DNA of 25,512 nt from a virus (Duplodnaviria; Heunggongvirae; Uroviricota; Caudoviricetes), in the IMG/VR virus record IMGVR_UViG_2627853638_000001, positions 1 through 25,512 of that record. One strand, written 5' to 3'. This document shows positions 18,055 to 19,221 of this stretch, piece by piece. The position numbers and the translations under genes are program-made. Numbering within the stretch: position 1 is the stretch's first letter; each line of letters opens with the position of its first letter. The notes beneath the pieces were generated by a model. It was not told the DNA's origin, did not search any database, and was given only the letters and a program-made list of their open reading frames with translations.

Positions 18055-18510
18055 TTATTCAGTTTTTATTCCTGCTCTCAAAACAGCCTCTGCCATTCTG
18101 ATATCCGGATTTTCTGAAATCATCTTTTCCGGCGAGTCGCAATCACCACCACATTCAGTTATGCGTTCATGACCAAAACGAATTGTGGTTTTGTGCGCAT
18201 TAATCATTTGTGTAAGCGCATCTGTCAATTCTGCAATGCGTTTGTCTTTAACTTCCAGCTCTTTCAGTAAAGCCAGTACGTCAGGAGCGCTAACATCAAC
18301 GACGGTTACGCGCGATTTCAGGTAATGCTCATCCGCAAAAGTTCGACCAGTTTTAAAATATCCATCATCCCCCTCACCTGTGCAGGCATACACAATATGC
18401 GTTCTGGAAAATATGCGCTGTATCGACATTTCATCGCCACAAACAGGACATTCCGGCACCTGAATTGGTGAATAACGTTCACGTAATGCCTGGTAATTAG
18501 TCTTGCACAC
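18055..18510 (-). CDS. Hypothetical prophage early protein with a CxxC zinc-ribbon-like N-terminus, 151 aa
   Basis: ECPVCGDEMS motif. GTG start with strong AGGAG RBS; overlaps the stop of the upstream gene. Confidence 0.45.
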   Translation of the reverse strand: MCKTNYQALRERYSPIQVPECPVCGDEMSIQRIFSRTHIVYACTGEGDDGYFKTGRTFADEHYLKSRVTVVDVSAPDVLALLKELEVKDKRIAELTDALTQMINAHKTTIRFGHERITECGGDCDSPEKMISENPDIRMAEAVLRAGIKTE

Positions 18511-18802
18511 TGGCTGTCTCCTGAAAAATCACCGCATGCCCCAGTTTCTCCGCCAGCGCCAGTTCTGCCTTAGCGCCTGCTGACCGCTGCCAGCCTTTCA
18601 GCATGTAAATCGCATCCACACAACGAATCATCGCCATGCAGATATCCATGTACTGCGGCTGTGTCAGCCCGTCCGGAAGTACTGCCGGGTTTAAGACGGT
18701 ATGCCCTTCCCGTTTCAGTTCCTCTTCCGCATTGTGAAACGCCTCACGGTTGAAATTTTTATACCCGGTCATTGGACCGGCGATATAGACTCTCACCCTC
18801 AC
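18497..18802 (-). CDS. DUF4406-like protein (nucleoside 2-deoxyribosyltransferase-like fold), about 100 aa
   Basis: N-terminus VYIAGPMTGYKNFNREAFHNAEEELKREGHTVLNPA is the signature I associate with DUF4406 prophage proteins. Start codon is uncertain (GTG candidates). Confidence 0.5.
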   Translation of the reverse strand: MRVRVYIAGPMTGYKNFNREAFHNAEEELKREGHTVLNPAVLPDGLTQPQYMDICMAMIRCVDAIYMLKGWQRSAGAKAELALAEKLGHAVIFQETASVQD

Positions 18803-19221
18803 GCCATCACCTCCTGAAAATTACCCTGATAAAACGACAATATGCGCTGCATAACTTCGCTCTTCCGGCACTCGCGACAGATTATGTTTAGGCGACTGTC
18901 GTAGCGACGTATTTCTCCGTCAGGTAATGACCAGATAAGGTCCGGATCAACCGCAGATGGTTTCTTCAGCTTTGCCCTTGAGAGCTTTTTACGGGCATTT
19001 TGCCAGTCCTTACGCGCCTGTTCAGACGGGAATAACCCGTAACCAGAGTTGTATACATCGCCACTGGCAACCAGCTCTCTGGCCAGAACGCTCATCAGAT
19101 ATCTTGTTGCCCCAGTTTTAGCTTCCAGTTGTCGTAACGTCTCGCGCCCACTCTGGCGTACGAGTTCAAGAACCTGCCCTTTAATTTTTTCCCGCTCTTC
19201 TTGTGTAAAAACTTTTGCCAC
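18799..19221 (-). CDS. Hypothetical prophage early protein, 140 aa
   Basis: GTG start with AGGAGG RBS; translationally coupled to the DUF4406 gene (overlapping stop and start). Confidence 0.4.
   Translation of the reverse strand: MAKVFTQEEREKIKGQVLELVRQSGRETLRQLEAKTGATRYLMSVLARELVASGDVYNSGYGLFPSEQARKDWQNARKKLSRAKLKKPSAVDPDLIWSLPDGEIRRYDSRLNIICRECRKSEVMQRILSFYQGNFQEVMA

Follow-up and report, generated by a model that had tools for sequence, protein, structure and literature searches.

In phage lambda, transcription from pR covers cro, cII, O, P and ren and afterwards the nin genes, and ren is reportedly named for the endurance of Rex exclusion. Lambda P and ren overlap by 4 nt with the nin genes next, and both ren and the nin genes are non-essential delayed-early pR genes (PMC10695390). 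Two-hybrid data in a RexA/RexB preprint show an interaction of Ren with the Rex proteins, and its authors describe ren as 'likely involved in DNA replication' (bioRxiv 10.1101/2021.04.19.439022). Here we analyzed a trio of minus-strand genes at 18055-19221 of the IMG/VR virus record IMGVR_UViG_2627853638_000001 (Caudoviricetes), of which positions 1 to 25,512 form the stretch studied here (25,512 nucleotides, hereafter the window). The window is a Rac/Qin-like lambdoid prophage and its layout matches the lambda order. The trio is probably a ren/nin-type accessory stretch of the early-right (pR) operon, made up of genes that act separately. Its members are as follows.

18799-19221, minus strand: gene 1, DUF977/'LygF'/Ren-like, 140 amino acids, GTG start
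18497-18802, minus strand: gene 2, DUF4406, 101 amino acids, GTG start
18055-18510, minus strand: gene 3, Ead/Ea22-like mosaic protein, 151 amino acids, GTG start

The same three families, in the same order and with the same spacing, occur as lygF-rac19-ead in Escherichia phage Rac-SA53, at 91.5% nucleotide identity over the DUF977 and DUF4406 genes. Rac-SA53 differs from the window in its ead allele (225 amino acids) and in its upstream module, ydaU-ydaV-ydaW. NCBI annotates genes of equal length in the prophage of E. coli FDAARGOS_944, which is 99.9% identical, and all three proteins are already in RefSeq under these family names, catalogued and common (the DUF4406 protein as WP_001266147.1). 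Upon induction, transcription from pR would run through the cro-like, cII/YdaT-like and replication genes into the three coupled accessory genes. The analogy with lambda ren and nin suggests a non-essential trio, and each gene would act alone.

Gene 1 resembles lambda Ren

Gene 1 matches Pfam DUF977 (E 3e-30, 105.4 bits against a curated cut-off of 22.1) and PHROG 142, 'Ren-like exclusion protein' (E 7e-47), to which lambda Ren also belongs (E 1.6e-41). In GenBank phage records the family goes by the name LygF. The original prediction had listed this gene as unknown; the gene is real, and the Pfam and PHROG matches replace the unknown status with a DUF977/Ren-like assignment.

In a BLASTP comparison the C-terminal motif of gene 1, NIICRECRKSEVMQRILSFY, was aligned to NLVFKECRQSAAMKRVLAVY of lambda Ren, and over the C-terminal 20 amino acids the two proteins are 45% identical. 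The motif columns, N-x-x-x-x-E-C-R-x-S-x-x-M-x-R-x-L-x-x-Y, are invariant in an alignment of lambda Ren with ten DUF977 alleles. Both proteins also have a winged-helix-like N-terminal region, which in gene 1 spans about residues 10-65. In the PDB, a profile combining Ren and DUF977 had no matches other than winged-helix DNA-binding domains (GntR, Z-alpha, Crp and AsnC; residues 10-65, E 1e-3 to 0.05), in agreement with an earlier HHpred/COMPASS assignment of DUF977 (PMC2686095). A protein-database search with DUF977 returned only homologs of more than 90% identity, and the winged helix rests on the profile search.

Lambda Ren (96 amino acids) and gene 1 share membership in PHROG 142 and a place directly after replication genes with stop/start overlap. 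They differ in length, gene 1 being longer by 44 residues, and are 24% identical overall; lambda Ren, unlike gene 1, has no Pfam DUF977 match. Judged by sequence, gene 1 is a remote homolog of lambda Ren, located at the position of ren directly past the replication genes, and DUF977 can be treated as the Ren family. The Rex-endurance phenotype itself has been tested in lambda only. Like lambda Ren, gene 1 would likely modulate replication-linked events or shield the phage from Rex-type abortive infection. Because gene 1 is a homolog of ren, the Rex-endurance gene, the accessory or anti-defense role suggested earlier for the locus is plausible.

Conservation along the gene is uneven: across 65 phage contigs, identity to the DUF977 protein of the window has a median of 54% for the first 95 residues and of 80% for the last 45. 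An allele mosaic joint lies inside the Ren-like gene, in its 3' third (18799-18935). The variable winged-helix part tends to move with the upstream replication module, and the C-terminal 45 residues stay similar together with DUF4406.

Gene 2 is modeled as a minimal NDT-fold protein

Gene 2 finds its described relatives among nucleoside 2-deoxyribosyltransferases (NDTs), the 2'-deoxynucleoside 5'-phosphate N-hydrolase DNPH1/Rcl and the cytidine monophosphate N-glycosidases MilB/BcmB. DNPH1 uses E104 as nucleophile and D80 as general acid, and binds the 5'-phosphate through S98 and S128'; the S98 equivalent is kept in MilB, and the phosphate pocket is missing in NDTs (PMC10603095). The gene 2 protein matches Pfam DUF4406 at positions 2-91 of the 91-position profile (E 9e-38, 129 bits, cut-off 22), with weak further Pfam matches to DUF1937 and Nuc_deoxyrib_tr. 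An AlphaFold2 model built with 25 homologs reached a predicted local distance difference test score (pLDDT) of 88. The best Foldseek matches of this model in the PDB were the T. brucei and Leishmania NDTs, MilB (a cytidine monophosphate N-glycosidase) and human DNPH1, with E 3e-5 to 1e-2 and a query template modeling score of about 0.7.

A broad DUF4406 profile of 61 diverse members matched the T. brucei NDT (PDB 2A0K) with E 8.8e-5 over nearly the full length. In this alignment YIAGP falls on YIAGP and S-x-G-A-x-x-E on D-C-G-T-A-F-E, which places Glu80 on the catalytic nucleophile Glu of GTAFE in 2A0K, at the start of helix 3. The T. brucei enzyme is the best match of DUF4406 both by sequence profile and by Foldseek. 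The earlier assignment of the middle gene to DUF4406, with an NDT-like fold, agrees with the Pfam, Foldseek and profile results, and on the modeled structure gene 2 is a minimal member of the NDT/DNPH1/MilB fold. A narrow DUF4406 profile found nothing relevant in the PDB, where NDT was reached by the broader profile only. Searching the PDB directly with each trio protein sequence by itself gave chance-level matches only. The family comprises 17,550 clusters at 50% identity (E <= 1e-3) across phyla, and a scan of ten longer DUF4406-containing proteins revealed no fused domains.

Across 148 diverse DUF4406 members, Ser74 is invariant (100%), Gly76 and Glu80 are each conserved in 99%, and Tyr6 of YIAGP, at the end of strand 1, is Tyr in 86% and Phe in 13%. 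The fold, the Tyr at the end of strand 1 and the pattern Ser-x-Gly-x-x-x-Glu are common to DUF4406, DNPH1/Rcl and MilB/BcmB. Ser74, six residues ahead of the Glu, aligns with an Asp of NDT and has its counterparts in Ser98 of DNPH1 and Ser97 of MilB. With this invariant Ser instead of the NDT Asp, DUF4406 resembles the nucleotide-specific branch; NDTs, whose chain is longer, are without the phosphate pocket. Since the nucleophile Glu and the DNPH1-type phosphate-binding Ser are both kept, we predict that DUF4406 is an N-glycosidase acting on a (deoxy)nucleoside monophosphate. Gene 2 would most likely cut the N-glycosidic bond of a (deoxy)nucleoside 5'-monophosphate via a covalent Glu80 intermediate, as in DNPH1 and MilB, and while the phage replicates this activity would remodel or clean the pool of nucleotides.

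Several points weigh against this reading of gene 2. The general-acid region in helix 2, where DNPH1 has D80, shows no conserved Asp, with Asp at position 53 in 47% of members and, at position 55, Cys in 68% but Asp in 14%. DUF4406 also lacks the C-terminal third of NDT and DNPH1, second phosphate ligand included. The gene 2 protein ends past strand 4 at residue 101, compared with 130-160 amino acids in DNPH1/Rcl and MilB/BcmB, and is without their C-terminal strand and helices, DNPH1 S128 among them. The second phosphate ligand of those enzymes, R23 in MilB and S128' from the partner subunit in DNPH1, is absent from DUF4406, and the site equivalent to DNPH1 R30 is Thr or Ser. From the sequence, the conserved Asn18-Arg19 could stand in for the second ligand. 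Similarity to DNPH1 and MilB is insignificant unless a family profile is used, and the narrow DUF4406 profile gave no significant match to human DNPH1 with hhalign or hmmsearch as a sequence-only alignment. DUF4406 could act on another substrate or merely bind a ligand. Literature searches turned up no functional study of DUF4406, DUF977 or LygF, with DUF4406 mentioned in passing only, and no experiment on the Ea22 allele of gene 3.

A different role for gene 2 would be counter-defense, in which DUF4406, working in the manner of a TIR/SLOG-type binder or hydrolase and not as a nucleotide-pool enzyme, degrades or sequesters a nucleotide-derived immune signal or a molecule related to nicotinamide adenine dinucleotide. 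Against it, the best structural and the only significant sequence matches of DUF4406 are NDT, MilB and DNPH1, its conserved motif is the NDT/DNPH1 nucleophile motif and not the TIR active site, and we found no tie between DUF4406 and known anti-defense families. We consider this role unlikely. Also unlikely is a broader scheme in which DUF4406 is a widespread phage N-glycosidase that destroys a modified nucleotide or immune signal and, in E. coli lambdoid phages, is paired with the Ren-like protein against abortive infection.

The trio itself is of little import, being common, catalogued and near-identical to annotated RefSeq proteins. The gain lies in a sharper hypothesis for DUF977 and DUF4406, two very common families. 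DUF4406, with its DNPH1/MilB-type Ser...Glu motif, offers a candidate phage nucleotide N-glycosidase that can be tested cheaply, and its enzymology is the sole part of real interest.

Gene 3 is an Ead/Ea22-like mosaic protein

Lambda Ea22 is a tetrameric protein of three parts (short N-terminal domain, coiled coil, C-terminal domain) that favors lysogeny via a host partner (PMC10834534, PMC7093339). Gene 3 matches the corresponding Pfam family, Ead/Ea22-like (PF13935), over residues 4-105 (E 4e-20, 73.2 bits, cut-off 27). It is laid out as an N-terminal peptide, a Cys-rich module, a coiled coil at residues 76-119 and a helical C-terminal domain. With lambda Ea22 and P22 Ead it shares PF13935, the N-terminal peptide, the coiled coil, a separate C-terminal domain and extensive module swapping. 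The differences are the additional Cys-rich module, a C-terminal domain unrelated to the solved one of lambda Ea22, and the genomic position: lambda ea22 lies in the exo-xis (early-left) region, whereas gene 3 lies past the replication gene in the early-right operon. The N-terminal peptide and Cys-rich module are common among gene 3 homologs, the C-terminal parts are freely swapped, and one homolog combines a different N-terminal module with a matching C-terminus.

The original prediction described this gene as encoding a zinc-ribbon protein. The gene is real and Ead/Ea22-like, and the zinc ribbon is only suggested by C21, C24 and C43. In the alignment of homologs these three Cys are conserved, a fourth is found in some only, and His62 is nearly invariant. 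In the AlphaFold2 model the Cys-rich hairpins have pLDDT 58-75 and the helix at 76-119 has pLDDT above 90, followed by the helical C-terminal domain; a fold search with this model gave no match to a solved structure at E <1. With three conserved Cys, Pfam zinc-ribbon matches that all stay below threshold and no significant fold match, a zinc ribbon in gene 3 is no more than plausible. The protein probably oligomerizes and targets a host partner, in line with the proposal for lambda Ea22.

Gene junctions and ribosome-binding sites

Genes 1 and 2 overlap by 4 nt (GTGA, 18799-18802) and genes 2 and 3 by 14 nt (18497-18510). The 10-mer TTTTCAGGAG occurs exactly three times in the window, each time in a start region of the trio.

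19227-19236, minus strand: copy 1, Shine-Dalgarno of gene 1, in the 40-nt gap past the replication gene
18811-18820, minus strand: copy 2, Shine-Dalgarno of gene 2, in the 3' end of gene 1, coding F-Q-E
18518-18527, minus strand: copy 3, Shine-Dalgarno of gene 3, in the 3' end of gene 2, coding F-Q-E

The spacing from TTTTCAGGAG to the GTG is 5 nt for gene 1, 8 nt for gene 2 and 7 nt for gene 3. By chance 0.08 copies are expected, and none of 100 shuffled sequences reached three. Copies 2 and 3 encode Phe-Gln-Glu close to the C-termini of the DUF977 and DUF4406 proteins, and related loci carry close variants of TTTTCAGGAG at the corresponding gene junctions. Its place at the starts, the coded F-Q-E and the variants in relatives together point to a strong ribosome-binding site that doubles as conserved coding sequence. 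These data confirm what had been read from the sequence at the outset, namely three minus-strand genes with overlapping stops and starts and a recurring strong Shine-Dalgarno, down to coordinates, overlaps and the three copies. They likewise support translational coupling of the three genes in the early-right region of the prophage, where tight coupling had been proposed; the overlaps and the TTTTCAGGAG ahead of each start both bear on it.

A scan showed no terminator-like site on the coding strand and no excess of promoter-like sites over shuffled sequence. We infer that the trio is co-transcribed. The third codon position accounts for 67% of the substitutions among homologs in DUF977, 79% in DUF4406 and 57% in the Ea22-like gene, a pattern that clearly indicates the DUF977 and DUF4406 genes to be real and under purifying selection.

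Distribution of the three genes

Megablast searches of 5426 complete E. coli genomes gave very unequal counts of genomes with a match.

DUF977 gene: 4104 genomes, about three quarters
DUF4406 gene: 1200 genomes, about a fifth
This Ea22 allele: 29 genomes
Whole trio, at least 80% covered: 19 genomes

For a closer view we examined 80 phage contigs whose DUF4406 is 88-99% identical to that of the window. Against separately acting genes, the DUF977 gene abuts DUF4406 in about 65-67 of these contigs at overall DUF977 identities of 41-99%, and the adjacency persists where the N-terminal part of DUF977 has diverged to 40-60% identity. Given this frequent adjacency in E. coli-type contigs, a functional pairing of genes 1 and 2 is possible. 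The third place is looser: this Ea22 allele follows DUF4406 in 8-9 of the 80, and the gene after DUF4406 is some Ead/Ea22-like allele in about 50 of 77 close contigs and otherwise DUF4752, DUF7167 or an unrelated gene.

More distant DUF4406 genes, at about 60% identity, are found in other settings. In Edwardsiella the gene lies in the early-left region, two genes downstream of an Ead/Ea22-like gene; in Enterobacter it is again early-left, two genes after a DNA methylase; in Rouxiella it follows DnaB and precedes NinB; and in a P2-like Citrobacter prophage it sits between two DNA methyltransferases (Dam-like and C5 methylase). Across 79 species-level loci, DUF977 was within two genes of DUF4406 in 2 and Ead_Ea22 in 2, and 77 had DUF4406 without either partner. 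The other neighbors in these loci are varied, with integrases, lysozymes and methylases as well as replication genes.

The trio might instead be one dedicated system with interdependent parts, for example an anti-defense or superinfection-exclusion module. The overlapping stops and starts, the common ribosome-binding sites, the recurrence of the order in Rac-SA53 and many E. coli prophages, and the adjacencies in the close contigs (DUF977 with DUF4406 in about 84% of the 80) would fit such a system. Tight packing is, however, usual in lambdoid early operons, the frequencies of the three genes in E. coli differ widely, DUF4406 occurs without either partner in the Edwardsiella, Enterobacter, Rouxiella and Citrobacter loci as in nearly all species-level loci, and the slot after DUF4406 may be filled by other families. 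The PADLOC defense-system models gave no match for the trio at E <= 0.01, and NCBIfam returned nothing for the trio proteins. We regard a single dedicated system as improbable. The unequal frequencies, together with the other contexts elsewhere, mark the trio as a frequent E. coli/Shigella lambdoid arrangement and not a conserved functional unit. A conserved unit of the three genes is not supported: co-occurrence, whose lack the original prediction itself had named as refuting, mostly fails outside the E. coli/Shigella lambdoid pool, and inside it the genes differ greatly in frequency.

In Edwardsiella and in a contig labeled Mesorhizobium, DUF4406 lies directly ahead of an Rv2179c-like 3'-5' exonuclease. 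We considered a link of DUF4406 to DNA methyltransferases or Rv2179c-like exonucleases: among 297 neighboring open reading frames of the 79 loci there were about 10 methylase and 2 exonuclease matches, and as such neighbors are a minority we make no claim of a link. The 3-kb contig JAIHTM010000290.1, labeled as a Collinsella metagenome-assembled genome, encodes DUF977 and DUF4406 proteins 94-95% identical to those of the window; most likely it is a piece of an E. coli prophage that was misbinned.

The trio follows the replication module

Upstream of the trio the minus strand carries, in this order, the following genes, the last of them separated from gene 1 by the 40-nt gap.

20826-21152, minus strand: YdaS-like gene
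20404-20829, minus strand: YdaT/cII-like gene
19262-20338, minus strand: replication initiator with a DnaD/DnaT-like C-terminal part (PHROG 3729, E 2e-255; PHROG 1701; NCBIfam DnaT C-terminal tail)

The original prediction placed the trio in a slot for replication or helicase-loader genes, a placement that the gene order contradicts, as the initiator itself sits upstream and in Rac-SA53 the three genes follow a full ydaU-ydaV-ydaW module (ydaT-ydaU-ydaV-ydaW-lygF-rac19(DUF4406)-ead). In other E. coli prophages the gene ahead of DUF977 is an ATP-binding, DnaC-like one, and phage HannyBb has the order O-like, Ren-like, methyltransferase. The trio comes after the replication module and does not replace it.

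That the three genes are themselves replication proteins, such as a helicase loader, is very improbable. The trio does adjoin the initiator, and the view of lambda ren in the RexA/RexB preprint would favor such a role. Against it, searches of Pfam, PHROGs and NCBIfam gave no match of any trio protein to the AAA+, IstB/DnaC, DnaB or lambda P families, the upstream protein already has DnaD/DnaT-like loader parts, DUF977 elsewhere follows a complete O plus DnaC-like or ydaU-V-W module, and lambda ren is dispensable (PMC10695390).

The last ~20 codons of the replication protein (19262-19330) encode a C-terminal tail, ...NEIPPGFRG, that matches the C-terminus of primosomal DnaT (NCBIfam, E 7.5e-4). 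In many related phage contigs, upstream proteins that otherwise differ end in tails of the NEIPPGFRG type at 90-95% identity, and judging from these sequences the tail may be a shared short interaction peptide.

Insertion sequences and other flanking elements

Downstream, the trio is cut off from the later genes of the operon by an IS1 element.

17207-17974, plus strand: IS1, 768 bp, with the 9-bp target duplication TCAGGCGGC; this IS1 is absent from E. coli FDAARGOS_944

The insertion lies 80 nt past the end of gene 3; on its other side, the start codon of the next gene, as annotated in FDAARGOS_944, is 25 nt away. That gene (16765-17181; PHROG 660, 138 amino acids in the same annotation) is severed from the early operon, and its extension to a TTG in the IS1 end in the list of open reading frames is an artefact. 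A second IS1 copy at 21896-22663 is 100% identical to the first and in inverted orientation; compared with FDAARGOS_944, it stands in place of about 1.8 kb, covering ydfA through dicB plus the beginning of the exonuclease gene. The two copies bracket a 3.9-kb block with the trio, the replication gene, the ydaT- and ydaS-like genes and the repressor, an arrangement that resembles a composite transposon or an invertible segment. Elsewhere in the window, Rfam matches at gathering score were found at 16108-16283, 6987-7166 and 6027-6246, corresponding to the sok antisense RNA (hok/sok), the Shigella small RNA CssrB and IS009. Together with the IS1 copies, these matches suggest the chromosome of Shigella or a closely related E. 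coli.

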